The notes beneath the pieces were generated by a model. That model was not told the origin of the DNA. It did no database searches and worked only from the letters and a program-made list of their open reading frames with translations. From assembly GCA_965216465.1 (NCBI GenBank), contig CBDCFW010000005.1, positions 640,001 to 704,000 on the forward strand: a stretch of DNA of 64,000 nucleotides. The letters are read 5' to 3'. Shown here piece after piece: positions 24,332-39,292 of the stretch. The first letter of the stretch is position 1, and every line of letters begins with the position of its first letter. The DNA comes from Bacteroidia bacterium. Lineage in GTDB: Bacteria; Bacteroidota; Bacteroidia; NS11-12g; UBA9320. The translations under genes and the position numbers were made by a program.

Positions 24332-24742
24332 TTAAGAACGAATATTCACTGCCTTAAGTCCTTTCTCAGACTTTTCAACGTCGAACTCAACTTTTTGACC
24401 TTTTTCTACCGGACTTTTCGCATCCGAAATGTGAAAATATAAGTCTCCCAACTTTCCACTTGCCTTAATAAACCCGAACCCTTTTTCTTGATCTAAGAAT
24501 TTAACATAGCCTTTGTAAACTCGGCCTTCAGATTTTTTGGTGTTACTGAGTTCGATCAATTGATCTGCATCGGCTTCTATCGTTTCTGGTTTGGTTTCAG
24601 TGAAATTTCCGTACGCATCAACATACATAATTACTTCTGATTGTTTACCCTCTGCACGACGTTCTGCCTTGCGTTGTTCTTTTTCTTTCTTTTTTTGAGC
24701 TTTTTTCTTTTCTCGCTCCTTTTTGCTAAAACTATCTGCCAT
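24332..24742 (-). CDS. Cold-shock domain protein with Bacteroidetes Lys/Glu-rich N-terminal extension
   Basis: MADSFSKKEREKKK..YVDAYGN N-terminus. KGFGFI (RNP1) and LYFH (RNP2). Confidence 0.9.
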   Translation of the reverse strand: MADSFSKKEREKKKAQKKKEKEQRKAERRAEGKQSEVIMYVDAYGNFTETKPETIEADADQLIELSNTKKSEGRVYKGYVKFLDQEKGFGFIKASGKLGDLYFHISDAKSPVEKGQKVEFDVEKSEKGLKAVNIRS

Positions 24743-24789
24743 ATAACAATATGACATGGCCAACAGATGTTGACCATGCCAAAATTTAA

Positions 24790-24981
24790 TTAAATCTTCT
24801 TTACGTTCGTAGCGTTTGGGCCTTTCTTTCCTTCTTCCACCTCAAACTCCACGCGATCGTTCTCATAAACATCTTGAGTAAGACCACTTTGATGAACGAA
24901 GATGTCTTTACCTCCATTATCAGGTTTAATAAATCCAAACCCTTTGGTCTGGTCAAAAAATTTAACAGTTCCTATTTCCAT
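24790..24981 (-). CDS. Cold-shock protein (CspA family), 63 aa
   Basis: MEIGTVKFFDQTKGFGFI..DIFVHQSG..GKKGPNATNV. True start is the ATG at 24981. Confidence 0.95.
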   Translation of the reverse strand: MEIGTVKFFDQTKGFGFIKPDNGGKDIFVHQSGLTQDVYENDRVEFEVEEGKKGPNATNVKKI

Positions 24982-25460
24982 TAATTGAATAAAATTATAT
25001 TGTCTTAAATCGGTAAGACAAAGTGTGTAATAAAAGTTATGGATCCGATCACCCCATTCGGAAATCATTCTAGACCCTGAATTCCCATTCTTGAATTCAG
25101 TAGAATTGTTTCCCTTTAGCTAAAATTTAGGATTGAACATCCGAGGTGACGGAGGACAACAGAATGAATTCCTGCTAAACGTGAACAATAATAGCAATAT
25201 TAATCCATCTCTCTAGGTTTGACCGAAAAGAAATGGTCTTAAGTGTGCCGATGCTACTTCGATTTTATTCAAAGTAAAGGTTACAAGGGGCTAAGTAAGT
25301 AGGATAAAGCGACGCTTATTAACTGATTGTGTGCTAAAAATCTCCTTTATAATAATTATTGTGATCACTTTTTTACGAATCGTTAATCTCCCTATTATTT
25401 ATAAGGTATTTGATTGCTTTAGACCAAATTCTTTTAATTTGATTCATATACATTTGAAAC

Positions 25461-26992: not shown

Positions 26993-27642
26993 ATGACAGA
27001 GAGAAGAATTGATTGGCTGTATCACAGCCTAAGTTTAATTGTAGTTTTCATAGGCATCACAGCTGGATTTGTGCTGCAAAATAGGAAGGATGCAAAAGCA
27101 GATAGACTCCAGGAGAAAAGATACTTTGAGGTTTTGTGACTGAAATGGAGCAGGACGCAGAAAGTCTTCAAGACTATATCACAAATGACAGCACATGGTT
27201 CAAAGCCCAATACCCCAAAATCATATTGCTTGCAAAAGATTCGTTAAGTGAGGATTCAGCAATTGCACTCGTACAATCTATGCTTATGTTCTCAGAATTT
27301 AAGCCTCACAATGGAACATACACCAATATTATTAACTCAGGAGATCTAGGATTAATTCATGATTATCAGATTAGGGAACATGTGGTTGATTACTACAAAA
27401 CTACCACTGACTATCAACTTATAGATGAATACTTTCACAAGTTCAATACCGAAACTTTGATGCCCTATTTAGTTGAACACTATGATATTGTGTTAAATCA
27501 GTTTGCGAACCCAAACGGACACAAAGATCATCGTTTTAAAAATGTAGCGGTTGGATTTATGGCTTATAAACAACAGCGGTATGAAGGATTTTCTGAACTT
27601 TTAGAAGTCTGTGAGAAGACGTTATCCGTTTTAAAAGAATGA
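26993..27642 (+). pseudogene. DUF6090-like membrane-anchored protein broken by a 1-nt deletion near 27128-27131 (or a sequencing error)
   Basis: ATG 26993 gives MTERRIDWLYHSLSLIVVFIGITAGFVLQN..EKRYFEVL* (stop 27137-39). One extra G after GAG restores EKRYFEGFVTEMEQD, in frame with ORF 27136..27642 (TYTNIINSGDLGLI motif). Confidence 0.75.
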
Positions 27643-27654
27643 AAGATTCAAACA

Positions 27655-30600
27655 CTACCCATGTATTTGAGCTAGTATGGTCGGGTCTTTTATCTTATCA
27701 TCGTTTGAAAGCATACGCATCTTCGAAATAATTTCCGCAGACTTGGGATCGTCATCAACAAAAGGCAAAAATACTCGACCTCGATGTTGGCTGTGTACTG
27801 GAATAATTGATAAATGCAATCCTTGCTTTTGAATTAACCCACTGCCTAAATGAATACTGTAACTCCCTAGTTTGCCATCAATCTTGATATGCCTATCCGT
27901 AAACTCAACATTATTTAATTTAAATAATCTGGCACTTTCTTTAGCCAACACGGCACGCATTTCCATGCTCGAATGACTTGCTTCTGGATCAACAGCACCC
28001 ACATGGGCCACACTAACAACCAAGTCTATATCGCGCATCACCTCACTAAAAATTAAGGGGTCTACATCCTCAAGTTTTAAAGGTTTACCTAGTTTTTGAT
28101 CATAGAACTCAACAGTTTCAAGCGTTGGTGATTCAATTTCTGAAGGTGAGAACCAATCAGCCATGGAGTAAACCGTGGCCATAATTTTCTTGTTGTGATA
28201 GACCTTTTGTAAGCCTTCTTCGTAGCTTACCGTCCAAGCCCTAGAACGCAACAAAGCTACCGTCTTTTTAGCCTGTACTTGATGCCCTTGATAGCGATTT
28301 GATGCATTGCCACTTTCTTGCTCATTTTCAGTAATTAAATATAGCTCCCGGAAAATCTGCTTGAAAGGTTGCACCAATCGTTTTTCAAAAGCATGACGTT
28401 GATACAGATCCCACGATACCGAACGGTATAAATGCACCGGGTGTGCAATTATCAATTTATCTACCTCCGTTAAAGATAATGGCTTATTCTCCAGGTCTTC
28501 AACACGCTGATTGACCCAATACCCTGCTTGTCCAGATTCGGGGTGAAACAAAACCAACTTACTCAGCATGGCTTTCACCACCGGATGTGTCATCAGCTTG
28601 GCTATCTCAATTACGGTAAACTGATCACCATTCAGCATGGCATTTTCGAGTGACTTTCGCGTTCTATTGTACTGCTTTCTGAGATAGGTTTTATTCTTCT
28701 TAAGTTTCTCTAAATCTTTATCCTTTTTATACTTGGCTGGTATAGATTTTTGCTTCTTATCACCTTTTTGAACTAAGATCTCAGCTTTACCAAGGTCATC
28801 TACACGAAGCTCAAAAGTCACATCATCTTTCTTTAGCACCGAAGCTGCCATAATCTCCTCCATCGCCTTGGTTTCCATAGCCCAAGAAAATCGTGTGCGA
28901 TCAGCGTAACCTGCATTTCGAGCAAGATTATCAAGCGAGATTTCTACTGCTTTAGCTTCACTTTCTCTTCGCTGAGCACCAAACTGTTTGCTTTCAACTA
29001 AAAATGTTTGAAGTAAATCGTAACGCTTCAACACATCTTTTTCAGGATTACTTTTACTTAGTGAAATTAGCCCAAGAGCCTTAACATAATCTTTGTCTCT
29101 TTTCTCCTTAACCTTCTTTAAGGTCTCAGTAATTTTCACTTCGCCTAACATTACACTTGAGTACAATTTCACTTGTCGATGAGCGTTTCCGTCTGATATA
29201 TACTTTGCAGCATTGTGCAATACGGTCCAGTTTTTCTTTCCAATTGCACCGTAAGCCTCATGGAACCAATTGATATCTAATGCTCCATTTTCAAAATCTT
29301 GACTTTCGATTTGCGAGTAGCGTGCTACAATAGTTTCTTTTTCCGAGTTCATATAATCAGAAGCATGGGCATGAAACCACCAAACCGCTTTTTCGAGGGA
29401 TTTAATTTTTAAAAGCTCGCCTACGGGTTCTGCCCATTGTGGACAGTACATTGCTAGCTCAAGCCAGCGTTTACTCGTTATCTTTGATTGCTTTGCCTCA
29501 CGAATAAAATCTCCAACATCCTCATTTTCAGCCATTACAGATTTTTTCACCATTTGGCTAAACATATCTTTTGCCGACTTATCTCCACGGTAATAATACC
29601 CTCTACTAAAAGTATCTTTTCCAAGTCTATTTAGCATCTCGATGAGGTACTGAACTCCTTCTATACTATTCAAGCTAGACACATAATTGGTAGCTTCAGT
29701 AGCTACATCACCTCTTTTTAGCTCAATATCGAGCCATGTCTTTTTTTAGCGGTTCATACAAGTTTTTTTGATGCAATGTGAGAGTGGCTTCAGATCTGTT
29801 TGCTCTTCCTTCAAACTCATTCAAAACCGAATCGTCGATTAATGCCTGATAAAGCAGATCATCGTCGGAAATTAAACCTTCTTTGTGCAACGCTAGGGTA
29901 ACCCAGCTTGGCGGCATTTGTTCTGATCCGTGATAGTAACTACTTTGAGGTCTACGAACAGCCATTTCATTTACATTTAGCAGTTTTTTACGATGGCGTT
30001 GATCTACAAAGTACAAATAGCGTTTGAGGTCCCAATAGCGTTTCAACTTAGGAAGATCGTTTTTAATTTCTGTTAATCCGCTTGGGCTCGTGGGTAGATT
30101 TGACTCTAGAAAAACTGCCCAAGACATTTTCTCATTGTCCCATCCATATTCAATTGTAGTTCTCTTTAACCGGTCATCGGCATGAGCAATTGCAGATTCT
30201 AATAAATCGACATTAAACCTTGCCATTGTATTATGGTCGGCAAAGGCGTTATAAACAAAGGTCAATAGACTATCTACTCTGTTTTTCAAACTATTCCAGT
30301 AGTAGGCATTACGAGCAGGAATCTTTAACCCACTGATGGTGGGCACAAACCTTGACAAAAGCGTGCGATAATATTTCCGCTGATCTGATCCTGAATGCAT
30401 TTCATTGATATAGTGGATGGCCATAGACAATTCGAAATCGTTGAGTTTTGAATTTCGATACCATTCTTGCCATACCTCTGGCAGTGGTAACAATTCAAAC
30501 ACTTCTTCAGGTTCTAAGTTTTCAATCTTGTTGTGGCGAAGATGAAATCCATCTCCAATTAATGTTGTCTCTGTAGAACCATCCCAGCCTTCGTAAGTAT

Positions 30601-32686
30601 ATTCATGATTTTTATGCTTTTCAATAAGGTCAATTAACCCATTCACCTCTTTTTTTATCTTTTTTGAATCAATCAATTCACCAAACAGAAAAGCTGGATT
30701 GAAACTCTCCATCAATTTGCCAAACAAGCCAGGTTTTTTACTCTTAAAAGGGTCAGAAATGGTTATCAGTGGACTAAGATTGGCATAGTCAATTACTCCA
30801 TAACCATTTGCAAAGTTTTTGTTCGATTTCTTCTTTACTACAAGTTTATCAAGGTAGATTTGCTCGTTCTCTCCAAAGTTTTTATGTGTGTCAATGTAGG
30901 CTATCGCTTGCTGCTCCACATAACTTGACATCTTGTTTGCACTTTTTAGTTGAGTAAGGATTTCGAGTCCACCCATGCGTTGATTAATGTTTCCAGACTC
31001 AAGCAATGCAGTAGAACAATATTTAATACTGCTATCTCCCTGTTTTAACATGAGATTCAGGGTATCCCGCCTTACATCTTTACCCTTACGGGTGAGTAAT
31101 CCTATTAGCACATCGAGATCTTCCTCTTCGACGCGAGTCAAATGATAAAGAACATTAAACGCTGTGGACCGAACGGTCTCATTTCGATCTTTCAATGCCT
31201 GCCAAACCAACTTTTTTTTCCATGTATTAGATGGTATGTGAATTGATTTAAATTTCCTATCGTTCGCATAGCGCAACGACCAAACGTTGTGGTCTGGAAA
31301 TATCTTTCTAATGTAAGACTCACGCACTTCGGACGGTATAGATGCTAATTCTGCACTCATTTCTTCAAGTTGCTTATCATTGGCATGTTGAACCGCGATT
31401 TGGTAGAAATAATCTGACTTGATTTTATAATCTATCCATGAAAATCCGCTTCCTGTTACCTGCTTTCCTGCTTTAGGAACGCTGGTAGCTATATCTATGA
31501 GCTGACCAACAAGTTCCTGTTTCCAGCTGCTTTTAGGAATAAGTTGAACAATGAGGTAGTCCAGCTCTAAATCTTTGCCAATATTCTCTACCATCCAGTC
31601 GAGTAGAACGGTATTGGTTCTACCTGTTCTTTGCATGAAGTAGCAGGCTATAATCTTTTTCTCTCGACTAGCATTCTGAATTAAATCGATGGCCTTTAAA
31701 TTGGCCTCGTCTACATTTAAAATTCCCATGCTCCATAAAGCGATATACACTTCGAGATTATCATTGCTCTGTAAAGCCTTTATAGCATCTTTTTGAGACA
31801 ACATAAAATTAAGTGCCAACTCCAGACAACGTTTCACGGTCGCTTTTTTAGGTGCCTCCCAATGAAAACCAAACCATTCATCTATCTCCATAATTACTGA
31901 ACTAAATCGTTGAAGGTCATTATCCAGTATAACTTTCATGAAATAAGCAAGAGCTTTTGGTGAAGCTTCTTTCAGGTTTGCTATTATGGTTTGACGAAGT
32001 CCCTCTTGGCGCTGTGCAGCTAATAAAAGTTTAGCAACCATTTCCCAAGCGTCTTTACGATCACTTAGAATTAATCCTTCAATTAAGTCACTGCAAACCC
32101 CGCCAATTTCATCCTCCCCATCGAGAATGTTGCTAATTCGGTCAAACAAAACTTTATCTCCTTTTTTAAGGGCAATACCAATTACGCGAGACAATATTCC
32201 AGTGCTGAACTCCTGGTAAACGGAATAACGAATAATTTCATCTAACGGAAGCTTATAGGGGAAAATTTCTCCTCTATTAAAAAGGTCATATAGAAAAGAA
32301 AGTTTTTTGGTGGTGTACGTGTCTGAGGGTTTACTTCTAAAAGGTCGTTTGTAATAATCGTTCTGGTAAGGGCCCAGATTCATCTCGTCCCACAAATCAG
32401 CAATATGAATTCCGATATTAGGGCCGTAAAGTTTAGCGGCCAATGATTTTCCTTGACTGCTTTTCCATGGGTTAAACTTTGGGTCATTACCAAAATTCAA
32501 TTTGTACATCTCCAGGGCATACTCATCATTGTACCCATAATATCCATCATCAGTACGAGTTAAATTGCCCGTTAATATTTTACCTAAAGTAATGTACTTG
32601 CTTGATAAGGTCGCAAGACTAGACGTTCGAAATTTAGGAAGTTTACTTTCTGCTATTATTTTTTCTGCTTGTTCTATAGGTATCAT
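27655..32686 (-). CDS. Giant helical-repeat DUF4132-type (MolR/YehI-related) protein, about 1676 aa, split into two ORFs by one extra A in an A7 run (29741-29747)
   Basis: Upstream ORF ends LYEPLKKDMARY*. The +1 frame continues KTWLDIELKRGDVATEA into ORF 27655..29682. Motifs LLLAAQRQEGLRQ, FGAQRRESE, AHPVHL, QPFKQIFRELY, FSEVMRDIDLVVSVAH and YSIHLGSG. Confidence 0.8.
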
Positions 32687-33108
32687 AATCTCCAGCGGGT
32701 TCCGGTTAAAAATGTGAGGCGTATAAATGTTATTTCTGACTCGGGTTGCAGTGTAATATTTGAATCCAAAGTAATTTCTTCATCATCTAAAAAAATGGCA
32801 AAAAGGCCATCTTTATGGGCTAGTAATGCAGCTTCAAGTGCTGTATCAGCATCAGCTTTTTGATCGTTAAAAATTGCCCCAAATGACACTTTTCCCATTT
32901 CGGCTTGATCTTGAATTTCCGATGGAAGTAAAAAACCTGACACAAAAGGCTCATCTCGTTTCTTGTTGAAGCGCACTACTTCGGACCGAATGCAAGCTTC
33001 TACTAAATCAGCACCAGTACGAATTGCAAGGTCTGTTTCTAGCTGCACGGTATAAATCTTTTTCTTACCTAGCCTCTTTAGATGTAAAGTATGTCTAACC
33101 ACAGTCAA
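32683..33108 (-). CDS. Small partner of the DUF4132 protein; predicted MoaD/ThiS/ubiquitin-like beta-grasp fold with a helical insertion
   Basis: ATGA overlap with the giant gene. C-terminal DGLFAIFLDDEEITLDSNITLQPESEITFIRLTFLTG parallels MoaD/ThiS C-termini. Confidence 0.65.
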   Translation of the reverse strand: MTVVRHTLHLKRLGKKKIYTVQLETDLAIRTGADLVEACIRSEVVRFNKKRDEPFVSGFLLPSEIQDQAEMGKVSFGAIFNDQKADADTALEAALLAHKDGLFAIFLDDEEITLDSNITLQPESEITFIRLTFLTGTRWRL

Positions 33109-33186
33109 AATGATTGAGTCTGCAATTTAATCATCTCTTGATAGAGATAAAATATGAAGTACAAAAAGTTTAGTTAAGCAAAAATC

Positions 33187-33651
33187 TTACTCCACCGACA
33201 AATTCAGCGGCATGCCATACGTTGATCTTACTGGTCGATCTCGTGCCTTTGCTGGAGTCCACATTCCCGAAGTTGATTGTATTACTCGAATTGCTTCATC
33301 TTCAATTCCATAACCGATTGGCTTTGAAGCGGTTCGTACATTGGAAACAGAACCATCTTTATTTACGGTCCATTCTAATTTTACAACCCCTCCCACGCCT
33401 GCAATAACCGCGGTGTCAGGATACTCAAAATTCTCGGCTATGTACAGCTGCAATCCGGAATGTCCATTTGGATTAAATTTGGCTTTCACCTCAATTTGAA
33501 ACATCTCAAAAACTTCTTCGTCAGCCTCAACTTCGTCTCGATCTATATACTTCAAATCAATCTCTTGCGAGTCATCTGTATCAGCAGAATCGGTTTGTGA
33601 AAAGCTATGAAATGAGAACAGGAGAAGTGAAAGAGTTATAAAATAGTTCAT
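33187..33651 (-). CDS. TonB C-terminal domain protein
   Basis: YPDTA..GVGGVVKLEWTVNKDGSVSNV..EAIRVI..WTPAK. Confidence 0.85.
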   Translation of the reverse strand: MNYFITLSLLLFSFHSFSQTDSADTDDSQEIDLKYIDRDEVEADEEVFEMFQIEVKAKFNPNGHSGLQLYIAENFEYPDTAVIAGVGGVVKLEWTVNKDGSVSNVRTASKPIGYGIEDEAIRVIQSTSGMWTPAKARDRPVRSTYGMPLNLSVE

Positions 33652-36793: not shown

Positions 36794-39292
36794 TTAGTCT
36801 ACTTGCAATAGCATCGTTTTAGCAGAATACTTGCTGCTTATTCTTAAGGTGTATAAACCAGCTCTAACTTCGTTAGTAGTCGCTTCACATGATCCAACTC
36901 CGTTCCAAGTGCTGATGATAGTTCCTTTCATGTCGATTAACTCAACAGTAATTTCATCGTCACTTTCAGTAGTTTTCACTACGAAGTTTCCTCTTGTTGG
37001 GTTTGGATATACAATTACATCAAGCTCGCTCTCCATCTCAACAGCTACAACGTTTGAGTAAGAGTACTGACCGTCAAAGTCAATTTGCTTAATTCTGTAG
37101 TATACATTTCCGCTTTGAGGTGCATTTGCATCAAGGAATCCGTACTTCAAGATTGATACTGAGTTACCAGCTCCAAGAACTTCACCAATTTTAGTGAATT
37201 CTTCACCGTTAACCATTCTTTCAACTTCGAACAATTCGTTGTTTACCTCAGTAGCTGTACTCCATTCTACAAGTACATTACCGTTATCAAGTCCTTTAGC
37301 TTTTACATTAACAAACTCAACAGGAACCTGACCAATCCACCAGTATCTAAGAGTTGCTGGAGTTTCATCAGTTAAACATGCGTTATCAGTAATAGTATAA
37401 GAAACTTGTACCTCATCGTCTGCATACACTTCGAATGACATTAATGACTGATCGAAGTTGTTAATAGTATAAGGTAACATCGCAGCAGTGATGTGAGTAC
37501 CGTTATAGTACAATTCGTTACTATCGTTAAGTGCAAGACCAGTAATTGTAATGCTGTCTAAAGTTGCATTTTGGTTTCCATCTTCGTTATCAGTTGAAGC
37601 AAAGTCATCTGTAGTTCCAAATCCGTGTCCAAATCCAACAGTTACAGTACCACCGTAAACTGGCTTAGCAATTTGGAAGTCTCCACCTGAAGTTTCAGGA
37701 CGTTTGTTGATTCCAAAGTTTGCGTTAGAAATATCTGTGTTCGTGATTGTAATTGTAAGTGATCCGTTTGGACTTCCGTCGTCACCAGCAGCTGCACCAA
37801 TGTTTTCACCAGTGAACGCCCAGTTAGTTGGTAGTCCAGCACTGTTTCCAGTAGATCCAATTGAAGGAGCTGAAGTCATAACAATTGCAGTATAAGTTCC
37901 TGCTAAGTGACATCCTAGGTCATATGAACCGCTACCATCTACTGAAGTAACAGCAACAACTTCATCGCTTCCGTTAACTAATACAGTATACAATTGGTTT
38001 CCGTCAGCAGATCCAATTCCAGTACCACTAACCAATGTGTTGTGGCAAAGTCCGTCAGCGTCGTTAAAGATATTACCTGTAACAGCGTTACCAATAACTA
38101 CTGTAGCTGTGTCGTATTGCGTACAACCTGTTCTTGGGCTGTAAGTATATTCTACTAAATAAGTACCGTTTGCGTTCGCACCCGCAGATAATTCTCCAGT
38201 TGAAGAGTTAACAGTAACGTGTCCGTTGTTAGGTGAAAGTAGAGTAAAAGTTCCTCCGTCAGTATGAGATGGACCATTGTTAGTTGCACTATAGCTTGCA
38301 CCAGCACATAACAGACTTCCGTAATCGATCATCGCTTGACCAACGTTTAATTCTAGTTGGTAAGGTTGAGTTAAATCTTTAAGCGTTGCAGTAGGTGAAC
38401 TTGAAGCTTTAGTTTTTAAGAACATAGTCTCAAAGAATAAGCTAGTACAAGGATCAGCAACAATAGACCCGTTGATTACTTCAGTTAAGTTAATTGCGAT
38501 TTCCACAAATTGCTTAGTAGTATACGTTGTGTCTCCAAATGCACCATAAGGTACATCTACCGTTCCGTTACTTGAAACACCAAATGCGTTTCCTGAAGGA
38601 ATAGTAAAAGCTTGCCAATCGTAGCCACAAGATGCACCTGCATCAGCTACCCATCGGTAGAAGTAAATGCTGTCAACAACACCACCATTGGTGTACTCAA
38701 CAGTAATTAAAATGTCTCCAACTGTTCTACCACAATCAGTTGCTGCTGTGGTAAATGATCCAGATGAAGATCCAGAAGGTGCTACTGCTTCTAGCTTTTC
38801 TTGTAAAAATTCAAAGTCAAGGTAGCTTGTACCGTTAACCGATGCACGGTCAGCGGCCACAACAGCCCAAAGGTCACCTGTAGTCGCCTCAGCAATGTGA
38901 ATGTTTGTGTTGTTTACATCATTCTTTGCTGGCACACTTCCAGTTCCCCAACTCCAAGTTGTAGGGTCCTCGTTAAATTTTGCACCTCCACTGAAAACAT
39001 CGTCGTTCGATGAATTTCCCCACGCATCTGTAGTGTGGAAGTTTAATTCGTAAGCCTTTGCAACACCGTTATCATAAATTAGATAGCCACTGTCGTTACC
39101 ATTTGTTTGGCTTCCTCTAGACCAGTCACCTGCTGTAGAAGATTGTCTTTCAACGTAGCCATCAATGTTAAATGGCAGACCAATCGAATTTAACGACGGA
39201 GTGGTTGTTGATTGTGCAAAGATTAAATTTGGAAAGATTGTTGACGTTAGGATCATGCCTATACTCGTCAAACCAAGTAATAAGTTCTTCAT
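36794..39292 (-). CDS. T9SS type A secreted surface protein (unrecognised N-terminal domain, SdrD/Ig-like middle)
   Basis: Signal peptide ending FAQ. VPVEF..WSTATEVNN..FEVER..YYRIKQIDFDG..VYPNP CTD. Confidence 0.85.
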   Translation of the reverse strand: MKNLLLGLTSIGMILTSTIFPNLIFAQSTTTPSLNSIGLPFNIDGYVERQSSTAGDWSRGSQTNGNDSGYLIYDNGVAKAYELNFHTTDAWGNSSNDDVFSGGAKFNEDPTTWSWGTGSVPAKNDVNNTNIHIAEATTGDLWAVVAADRASVNGTSYLDFEFLQEKLEAVAPSGSSSGSFTTAATDCGRTVGDILITVEYTNGGVVDSIYFYRWVADAGASCGYDWQAFTIPSGNAFGVSSNGTVDVPYGAFGDTTYTTKQFVEIAINLTEVINGSIVADPCTSLFFETMFLKTKASSSPTATLKDLTQPYQLELNVGQAMIDYGSLLCAGASYSATNNGPSHTDGGTFTLLSPNNGHVTVNSSTGELSAGANANGTYLVEYTYSPRTGCTQYDTATVVIGNAVTGNIFNDADGLCHNTLVSGTGIGSADGNQLYTVLVNGSDEVVAVTSVDGSGSYDLGCHLAGTYTAIVMTSAPSIGSTGNSAGLPTNWAFTGENIGAAAGDDGSPNGSLTITITNTDISNANFGINKRPETSGGDFQIAKPVYGGTVTVGFGHGFGTTDDFASTDNEDGNQNATLDSITITGLALNDSNELYYNGTHITAAMLPYTINNFDQSLMSFEVYADDEVQVSYTITDNACLTDETPATLRYWWIGQVPVEFVNVKAKGLDNGNVLVEWSTATEVNNELFEVERMVNGEEFTKIGEVLGAGNSVSILKYGFLDANAPQSGNVYYRIKQIDFDGQYSYSNVVAVEMESELDVIVYPNPTRGNFVVKTTESDDEITVELIDMKGTIISTWNGVGSCEATTNEVRAGLYTLRISSKYSAKTMLLQVD

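Follow-up and report, generated by a model that had tools for sequence, protein, structure and literature searches.

In the MoaD-MoaE and ThiS-ThiF/ThiG systems, a small beta-grasp protein ending in Gly-Gly inserts its C-terminal tail into a larger partner, and in the bacterial ubiquitination-like operons a ubiquitin-like protein (Ubl) is encoded together with E1, E2 and JAB/DUB (deubiquitinase) proteins. Proteins with the DUF4132 domain (MolR, YehI and related proteins) occur widely and are often of giant size; they belong to the DNA-damage regulons of E. coli as well as of Deinococcus, and to our knowledge they have no known biochemical function. A small protein encoded beside one of these genes has been studied in Deinococcus radiodurans, where the product of DR_A0165 (SEP068184) is treated, in the available portion of the report (PMC9650054), as a peptide limited to Deinococcus and acting through thioredoxin, without a link to DUF4132. 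The subject of this work is a pair of genes located at positions 27655-33108 of a stretch of 64,000 nucleotides (nt) from a Bacteroidia bacterium (contig CBDCFW010000005.1 of the assembly GCA_965216465.1; this whole stretch is referred to as the window). A preliminary description of this DNA had proposed that the first of these genes codes for a Ubl with a masked C-terminal Gly and the second for a giant helical-repeat protein with a DUF4132 domain, possibly forming a conjugation, scaffolding or anti-phage module. The results described here indicate that the small and the large gene constitute a widespread, strictly paired bacterial two-gene module. With a probability that we place at about 0.6, the small protein is an obligate Ubl-like subunit which would be docked, its tail included, on the DUF4132-DUF7737 module of a stress-response protein, and the large gene has become a pseudogene in this genome.

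The pairing of the two genes is seen in two samples of genomes. A scan with the small protein, limited to one genome for each species, gave 72 loci, mostly from Flavobacteriaceae, Sphingobacterium, Chitinophaga, Saprospiraceae and Capnocytophaga, together with two gammaproteobacterial metagenome-assembled genomes. The large gene adjoins the small gene on the same strand in 64 of these 72 loci, and in 60 of the 72 it is a single open reading frame (ORF) of 1584-1696 amino acids (aa). The order of the two genes varies, the small gene coming first at 18 of the 64 loci (two of them cut by a contig end) and the large gene coming first at the other 46 (one cut, and another, L064, with a frameshift in the large gene itself). 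When the small gene comes first, it is separated from the large gene by 4-76 nt, except at one locus (L072) where the gap is 324 nt from the called start. The second sample comprised 401 genomes drawn evenly from the phylum. The small protein is present in 10 of these genomes, at 11 places, and matches to DUF7737 above the cut-off occur in exactly these genomes and at exactly these places, always on the contig of the small gene; for DUF4132 there were 12 places, 11 of which are those of the small gene. The full DUF5724 region, which precedes DUF4132 in the window protein, was found in seven genomes of this sample, all with the small gene adjacent, and the remaining small genes are located directly upstream of genes for DUF4132-DUF7737 proteins of ~860 aa (835-869 aa) which lack DUF5724. 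As these short forms are still paired, the constant partner of the small protein is the DUF4132-DUF7737 module and not the helical DUF5724 region, and the specificity of the partnership tracks DUF7737 rather than DUF4132 as such. Further, in the family to which the window genome belongs, the small gene lies directly upstream in all four of the DUF7737-positive further genomes. A conserved third gene was not found, the commonest neighbour family being present at 25 of the 72 loci, all from related flavobacterial genera, and the recurrent neighbours of the 72 loci include no E1 or JAB family (E2 was not searched). Thus the strict pairing that the preliminary description had expected from a gene-neighbourhood analysis is borne out both by co-occurrence and by adjacency. 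A description of this pairing was not found in a full-text search of the literature, outside which most subscription journals lie.

The small gene occupies positions 32683-33108 of the minus strand and codes for 141 aa from a TTG start at 33108, or for 139 aa from a GTG start at 33102, two codons inside the TTG; the 139-aa form is the version present in the protein database. The 141-aa ORF overlaps the next gene by ATGA, as noted in the preliminary description (positions 32683-32686, minus strand, TTA-TGA against ATG-ATA), and this overlap is peculiar to the window locus, the other loci having either a gap or the reversed order. Searches of Pfam, NCBIfam and PADLOC (PADLOC-DB 2.0) left the small protein without a match. 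A HMMER search of 1.84 billion cluster representatives retrieved 640 of them at E ≤ 0.001 and 199 at E ≤ 1e-10, nearly all of the best 150 representatives being 135-145 aa in length, and judged by these matches the small protein belongs to a large unannotated family. In an alignment of 120 members, G72 and D100 are invariant, and K11, V40, V44, K73, F76, G101, F106, L134 and G136 show conservation of 90% or more; the conserved features are thus the N-terminal LKRLGKKK, the G72-K73 loop, D100-G101 and the C-terminal ...RLTFLTG. The AlphaFold2 model of the protein, with a predicted local distance difference test (pLDDT) value of 83.9 and a predicted template modelling (pTM) score of 0.72, has the order strand-strand-helix, an insert of lower confidence (residues 53-86), helix-strand-strand-strand and a low-confidence tail. 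Its best Foldseek matches in the PDB are nearly all ubiquitin-like beta-grasp proteins, viz. ubiquitin, ISG15, UBL domains, the Ras-binding domain of PI3K and MoaD (1fm0_D), with E values of 0.03-0.09, probabilities of 0.66-0.97 and template modelling (TM) scores of ~0.5 on the target. In a viral structure library, many ubiquitin-family proteins are likewise among the best matches, mixed with unnamed proteins. Over both libraries the best E values are 0.02-0.09 and the TM score on the query is ~0.3, due to the insert. The best matches are mostly ubiquitin-like, MoaD included, as the proposal of a beta-grasp fold would lead one to expect, but none of them is at E ≤ 0.001, and on the basis of the model a ubiquitin-like beta-grasp fold is no more than likely.

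In comparison to the structural matches, the relationship of this family to the ThiS/MoaD proteins is not detected at the level of sequence. When the 120 members were scanned against Pfam at E ≤ 1, ThiS was the commonest family, grazed by six of the 120 with a best E value of 0.045, which is below the threshold of significance. The window's small protein gave no match to the ThiS/MoaD profile (PF02597), the hhalign probability between the small-protein family and ThiS of D. radiodurans was 0.5%, the small-protein profile found nothing below E 0.08 among the sequences of solved structures, and in the ESM Atlas the small protein matched only unnamed clusters.

The C-terminus of the small protein provides further information. 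Of 156 proteins tallied, 149 have the end motif [RK]-h-x-h-h-x-G (h, hydrophobic), and the C-terminal Gly is kept in 148 of these 149. The tail following this Gly is exactly three residues long in 128 of the 149, with W as the last residue in 107 of the 128, F in 13 and Y in four; another 11 of the 149 have a one-residue tail, the residue being Gly in five of them. The end of the family profile is the end of the protein in 128 of the 156 and lies two residues earlier in 12, and relative to this profile N-terminal extensions of up to 115 aa are seen, as against C-terminal extensions of at most 12 aa. A Gly-Gly-stop end was present in all 11 of the distant relatives inspected, viz. two from Deinococcus, one from Novosphingobium and eight that accompany short-form large proteins in Bacteroidota. 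From these sequences the family has two C-terminal states, Gly-Gly-stop and G-x-h-W-stop, and such ends at a fixed register, of either kind, indicate that the free C-terminal end is under selection. As judged from the sequences, no other observation speaks as strongly for a Ubl as this free end kept at a fixed register. The preliminary description had envisaged a conserved terminal Gly masked by a variable tail; the Gly has stood up, but the tail, being G-x-hydrophobic-aromatic in 128 of 149, is of a fixed kind. The window protein itself is an outlier in this regard, as it ends in G-T-R-W-R-L and the five-residue tail TRWRL is of a length found in three of the 149. In four Capnocytophaga loci the conserved C-terminal Gly is replaced by Lys, and the protein ends in ...TFLAKAPW.

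These observations on the C-terminus raise the possibility of genuine Ubl chemistry, in which the C-terminal Gly would be adenylated, thiocarboxylated or ligated by the DUF4132-DUF7737 part acting as a non-canonical activating enzyme, the three-residue tail being cut off first. The near-universal Gly, the Gly-Gly-stop ends in Deinococcus and in the short-form relatives, and the fold matches, along with the grazing of ThiS, are in accordance with this, as is the maintenance of a free C-terminus in a family that tolerates N-terminal extensions (among proteins of 248-2000 aa no fusion was seen, which is weak evidence). On the partner, invariant His, Asp, Glu, Arg and Ser residues are numerous, and in the model described below the small protein is touched by two flexible loops that are conserved. 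However, a tail of fixed length that ends in Trp resembles a docking motif and not a disposable propeptide, the four Capnocytophaga copies have Lys in place of the Gly, the comparison with ThiS of D. radiodurans by hhalign finds nothing, and no nucleotide-binding or ligase fold is detectable in the partner. There is, in addition, no linked E1, JAB or other enzyme (E2 was not searched). The earlier statement that the window lacks E1, E2 and JAB genes holds for two of the three, ThiF-type E1 genes being present only on another contig and a Prok-JAB match being absent from the whole genome, but its E2 part was not tested. The tail processing and conjugation suggested earlier are not shown by any of these results, and we consider such chemistry to be unlikely, though worth keeping in view.

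The large protein contains the DUF4132 domain, as had been described (PF13569; E 2.1e-46, 158.6 bits against a cut-off of 27), and in addition DUF5724 (PF18991, likewise above its gathering score) and DUF7737 (PF24879; E 1.9e-33, 115 bits against a cut-off of 27). All three are on the minus strand: the DUF5724 region, at 28876-32488, is split by a change of frame that is discussed later, so that its profile positions 33-896 fall in an ORF of 987 aa and positions 947-1214 in one of 675 aa; the DUF4132 domain, at 28234-28758, corresponds to residues 309-483 of the 675-aa piece and contains QPFKQIFRELY, which lies in the predicted interface; and DUF7737, at 27664-27966 (residues 573-673), is where the small protein is predicted to dock with its C-terminal strand and tail. 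The translation contains all three motifs listed in the preliminary description, QPFKQIFRELY, SEVMRDID and HLGSG, and the majority of their residues show little or no variation among 68 homologues. The invariant polar residues of the 3' part are H414, Q438, Q442, R445, E446, Y448, E547, R550, D551, D553, D565, R576, H611 and S614, and such a number of them suggests that the DUF4132-DUF7737 part may harbour a site for catalysis or for the binding of a ligand. The monomer model of the 675-aa part has a pLDDT of 85.1, with residues 1-280 modelled as all-helical, and the only segments with a pLDDT below 50 are the two conserved loops 564-569 and 631-636, both of which border the interface. Foldseek comparison of this model with the PDB gave weak matches to helical-repeat proteins of the exportin type (best CRM1, E 0.19); the 3' part and its profile found nothing below E 0.08 among the sequences of solved structures, the ESM Atlas returned no usable named match for residues 400-675, and the HEAT matches in the 5' part are below the Pfam thresholds.

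When the 675-aa 3' part (with a 68-row alignment, 23-66% identical to the window protein) was co-folded with the small protein (with the 120-member alignment), the interaction prediction score from aligned errors (ipSAE) was 0.77, 0.74 and 0.71 in three runs (median 0.74), as against 0.00 for all three controls; at least 92% of the contacts are common to the runs, and the pLDDT of the partner is at least 80. The mark used for this score was reached by 58 of 80 solved complexes and two of 110 mismatched pairs, counts that apply only roughly here because our own alignments were used. The AlphaFold-multimer test proposed for the pair thus came out in its favour, and the small protein is predicted to bind the DUF4132-DUF7737 module. 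The interface in this model comprises residues 415-452 (the end of DUF4132, including the RELY motif), 549-587 (from SEVMRDxD through VDPEAS) and 625-672 (DUF7737) of the large piece, and residues 10-18 (LKRLGKKK), 57-85 (the insert with G72-K73), 89-111 and 127-138 of the small protein. The tightest predicted contacts are those of K73 and V74 of the small protein against residues 446-449, and residues 127-138, consisting of the C-terminal strand and tail, rest on residues 639-653. The interface, which includes 65 of the 141 residues of the small protein, takes in ten of its 11 conserved positions (hypergeometric p 0.002), and on the large piece 31 of the 127 conserved positions are within the 71 interface positions out of 675 (p 2.5e-7), the enrichment within residues 400-675 being significant at p 0.0016. 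An interface of this extent (~200 contacts), covering the most conserved surface of the large protein, could also belong to a small protein that occupies the active site of the large one as an inhibitor or regulator until, under stress, it is set free or broken down, much as in a toxin-antitoxin pair or a zymogen, and an operon pair with variable gene order would fit such an arrangement.

An orthologous pair was found in D. radiodurans by a tblastn search of a plasmid collection, its 412-kb replicon being filed as a plasmid. A hypothetical gene of 134 aa is located here between trxC and a gene for a DUF5724-DUF4132-DUF7737 protein of 1626 aa, 2 nt upstream of the latter; the 134-aa protein matches the small-protein family profile with an hhalign probability of 99.85% (E 1e-30), and the large protein is 39.7% identical over 99% of the 3' part of the window protein. 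By position these genes are DR_A0165 and DR_A0166, and the same gene pair is present in D. ficus. This pair resembles that of the window in matching the same family profile, in the DUF5724-DUF4132-DUF7737 architecture and in the small-then-large order, but the Deinococcus small protein ends in Gly-Gly-stop whereas that of the window ends as indicated above, and DR_A0166 is intact whereas the large gene of the window is frameshifted. The view that SEP068184 is a peptide of Deinococcus only is contradicted, at the level of sequence, by the 640 clusters of its family. According to the accessible parts of the two studies, the drA0165-drA0166 operon is strongly upregulated on depletion of DdrO and carries a radiation/desiccation response motif (RDRM) at -83 (PMC8533742), the tagged protein DRA0166-V5 rises after mitomycin C in an IrrE-dependent manner (PMC8533742), and SEP068184 rises after gamma rays and H2O2 (PMC9650054). 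Induction of the orthologue by stress is compatible with the regulatory role just described. However, the same source reports that deletion of DR_A0165 makes the cells more resistant to H2O2, and that an overexpressing complemented strain is less resistant than wild type (PMC9650054), which is the opposite of what is expected on loss of an antitoxin. Also, small genes without an adjoining partner persist in genomes which have the large gene elsewhere, and PADLOC is silent for both the small protein and DUF4132-DUF7737, a weak HEAT-ARM match (E 3.3e-05) being its only result. A role as a releasable inhibitor is therefore, in our estimation, improbable. As part of the same study, co-immunoprecipitation with SEP068184 gave 157 proteins, and pull-down was obtained with the thioredoxin DR_A0164 (as far as the available text of PMC9650054 goes). 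A list of 157 proteins might be expected of a Ubl that becomes attached to many targets, but those proteins also came with a bait tagged at its C-terminus, which should block conjugation.

In D. radiodurans the pair (positions 9916-16019 of L080) is situated just after trxC, and modA and a thiS-thiG-thiD-thiE-thiC cluster are nearby. This proximity catches the eye given the historical name of MolR, "molybdate regulator", and the ThiS-like features of the small protein; it is probably a coincidence.

A number of points weigh against the reading that the small protein is an obligate subunit of a stress-response complex. For seven of the 72 small genes, no large gene is located closer than 8 kb. 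Five exception genomes (four with one of these seven genes, and that of Croceitalea dokdonensis, L032) were searched whole; four of them carry a DUF4132 gene of ~1670 aa elsewhere, in two cases in tandem, and the L032 genome has none. On a plasmid of Chondrinema litorale (L082, 3888-6302), a gene for an 804-aa DUF4132-DUF7737 protein has no detectable small gene adjacent to it. For the small protein, no fold match at E ≤ 0.001 was obtained by Foldseek in the two libraries, and for the C-terminal module no structural relative is recognisable by sequence, profile, Foldseek or Atlas comparisons. The score of the complex is the model's own confidence, so that binding is a prediction, and the enrichment of conserved residues in the interface does not constitute independent proof, as conservation also feeds the alignments given to the model. 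In the available text of PMC9650054, DR_A0166 is not named among the co-immunoprecipitated interactors and binding of Trx1 is reported instead, and no RDRM is found upstream of DR_A0165, contradicting PMC8533742. The stress role of the Bacteroidota copy is one that we infer by transfer from its orthologues. Lastly, the second-study backing for the sequence at the frame break, described below, is one contig of 151 nt with a depth of 2.

With regard to the exceptional loci, it may be mentioned that in Capnocytophaga (L024, L058, L065-L068) the small gene is unlinked and two DUF4132 genes of ~1600 aa are found in tandem elsewhere (genomes G441 and G443). The ORF of 89 aa that precedes the 804-aa gene of Chondrinema litorale looks like a membrane protein, and this organism has a complete pair on another plasmid.

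The large gene in the window had been taken as a single gene of ~1676 aa. This length would result if one A fewer were present, but the gene in fact consists of two ORFs, of 987 and 675 aa, in different frames. The 5' part (29723-32686, minus strand) is the 987-aa ORF, the last five codons of which (DMARY-stop) are out of frame, and the 3' part (27655-29740, minus strand), in the shifted frame, contains the end of DUF5724 followed by DUF4132 and DUF7737; the ORF listed for this part, of 675 aa, extends over 27655-29682 and begins at an internal GTG. Alignment of the three-frame translations with ten intact homologues places the switch between ...NLYEPLKK and TWLDIELKRGD, at a run of seven A (A7, coding strand; 29741-29747, minus strand), and removal of one A from this run gives a single frame of 1676 aa which continues as the homologues do. 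The A7 sequence, without an indel, is present in public contigs from two studies (compared over 29300-30200), viz. a 13-kb contig of the run X1, from which the assembly itself may derive, and the 151-nt contig (29646-29796) of the run X5, from a different study. A slip of -1 on the A7 run reads ...KKRHGSILS-stop, and as it ends at a stop the usual frameshift on a run of A would not rescue the frame, only a +1 event being able to do so. On account of the same A7 in two studies and the -1 slip leading into a stop, the large gene is read as truly broken in the population. The window copy has otherwise lost none of the invariant residues, in the small protein or in the large, and the combination of one frame-breaking insertion with the unusual extended tail of the small protein fits a recent inactivation. 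A scan of 27300-33500 for promoters and terminators gave a number of sites no higher than in shuffled sequences.

If, on the other hand, the A7 run had arisen through faulty assembly, were subject to phase variation or were bypassed by transcriptional slippage, or if the 675-aa ORF functions by itself, then the large gene would be intact or expressed in this organism. The lesion is a single one and is located in a homopolymer, the window copy still has each of the 24 invariant residues of the 3' part, natural DUF4132-DUF7737 short forms of 835-869 aa exist with a small partner of their own, and the 675-aa piece is itself predicted to bind the small protein. These facts, however, have to be set against the occurrence of the same run without an indel in both studies, the stop reached by a -1 slip, the shortness of an A7 run for efficient slippage, and the departure of the small-protein tail from that of its clade, and we regard an intact or expressed large gene as doubtful. 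It is more in keeping with these results that the large gene is probably a recent pseudogene, or the locus possibly one that is switched off.

Two other loci show disrupted large genes. In Winogradskyella psychrotolerans RS-3 (L064, 2788-7793) the large gene goes out of frame after about residue 697, and the adjacent ORF has a length of only 923 aa; either this copy was broken independently, as the second such case among the 62 loci that cover the gene in full, or the draft assembly is in error. In Croceitalea dokdonensis (L032, 7401-7844), a remnant of DUF7737 (residues 609-674) lies upstream of an apparently intact small gene, no other DUF4132 match was found in the genome, and the locus looks like one that is decaying.

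The distribution of the long form among the relatives of the window genome is patchy. DUF7737 was found in none of the 27 other genomes of its genus and in four of 38 genomes from other genera of its family, all of them short forms, and a 701-nt DNA probe around the break, compared with 40 relatives, matched only the window's own genome. As the long form is missing from the sampled relatives, it is an accessory gene in this genome and was plausibly acquired horizontally. A patchy spread of this kind, which extends to the phylum as a whole (10 of 401 genomes), would also be expected of an anti-phage defence or conflict module, as had been suggested in the preliminary description; the breakage of the large gene here and in W. 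psychrotolerans, and a PADLOC match to HEAT-ARM_XIII (E 3.3e-5) over 65 residues of the 5' part, can be placed on the same side. However, PADLOC found no match for the small protein or for the 3' part with DUF4132-DUF7737, and all 11 of the plasmid records matching the large protein are predicted to be non-mobilizable. Further, the pair is flanked in the window by genes for a TonB_C protein, an alpha/beta hydrolase, a metallo-beta-lactamase-fold protein and an AraC regulator. At the other loci the recurring neighbours are GNAT, DUF1444, a leucine-rich repeat (LRR) protein, SIMPL and a response regulator, none of which is typical of defence islands, along with small proteins that have no annotation. 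The suggestion of a defence island has thus not been sustained, and we consider a defence function to be highly improbable. Elsewhere in the window, as seen from the translations, two adjacent genes (24332-25068, minus strand) have cold-shock-domain-like products with a GFGFI motif, one of which has an N-terminal extension rich in lysine and glutamate, and a secreted-looking protein of 832 aa (36794-39292, minus strand) has a C-terminus resembling a type IX secretion sorting domain.

Taken together, the reading to which we give preference can be set out as follows. The small subunit would be a ubiquitin-like beta-grasp protein of ~140 aa, and the large one, of ~1670 aa, would consist of the helical DUF5724 region followed by an alpha/beta DUF4132-DUF7737 part. 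The small protein would sit on the DUF4132-DUF7737 module and thereby complete a conserved composite site, to which it may contribute the invariant Gly-Lys loop, the LKRLGKKK strand and the C-terminal strand with its free tail, and the large protein the RELY motif, the SEVMRDxD helix and the flexible loops VDPEAS and SQHRG. The logic of this arrangement may be similar to that of MoaD or ThiS, the tail of which enters a large partner, but the large partner is here an unrelated one, and the placing of the tail in a pocket is a step that we infer. The operon of D. radiodurans suggests that the module may be a part of the response to DNA damage or oxidative stress. In the window genome, the one extra A which splits the large gene would mark an accessory locus that was recently inactivated, or a switched-off state.

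The window locus being probably dead, its value is that of a pointer to the family. It is clear that the DUF7737-bearing branch of the DUF4132 proteins travels with a protein of probable ubiquitin fold that ends either in Gly-Gly or in a fixed G-x-h-W, and this provides the first concrete handle on this group of proteins; it also corrects the published view of DR_A0165 as a Deinococcus-specific small peptide. A more far-reaching possibility, which we put forward as speculative, is that DUF4132-DUF7737 is a hitherto unrecognised enzyme that acts on the C-terminal Gly of a dedicated Ubl, for an activation independent of E1 and E2, for sulfur-carrier function or for tagging, and that it is switched on by DNA damage or oxidative stress. 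If this were true, then the forms ending in Gly-Gly would be ready for use and those ending in G-x-h-W would be processed or auto-inhibited. Of the original idea of a Ubl coupled to a DUF4132 giant, the partnership and the likely fold have been retained, and are strengthened by the Gly-Gly ends of related branches, whereas the variable masking tail and the defence role have not, and conjugation is unproven.

It remains to compare this module with the known systems. E. coli MolR/YehI shares the DUF4132 domain with the large protein, and molR is listed among the LexA-regulated SOS genes (PMC6590174, in the part of that work available), which parallels the control of the Deinococcus operon by DdrO; DUF4132 loci are thus DNA-damage-induced in two distant phyla. 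However, E. coli YehI is without DUF5724 and DUF7737 and lacks the small partner. The yeh locus of E. coli contains WGR, MoxR, VWA and SWIM, none of which is seen in the scanned window proteins or their neighbours. YehK, which is encoded beside YehI, was considered as a homologue of the small protein and rejected, the hhalign probability being 0.1%, with no profile match at the locus. The study of Kaur et al. 2020 (PMC7159879) makes no mention of MolR, YehI, WGR, DUF4132, YehQ or SWIM. The likeness to MoaD and ThiS consists of the beta-grasp-like model with its fold match to MoaD, the Gly-Gly ends in related branches, and the prediction that the C-terminal strand and tail lie on the partner. 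The small protein is unlike them in showing no significant sequence match, in having an insert of ~35 residues with an invariant Gly-Lys, in the lack of a linked E1-like adenylyltransferase, and in a partner unrelated to MoaE, ThiG or ThiF; and in place of a free Gly-Gly most members of the family end in G-x-h-W, and the window protein in its own extended tail. Relative to the ubiquitination-like operons, in which the Ubl is accompanied by a set of enzymes, an E1 or JAB that is linked or conserved is not found here (E2 was not searched), and the only conserved partner of the small protein is the DUF4132-DUF7737 protein.

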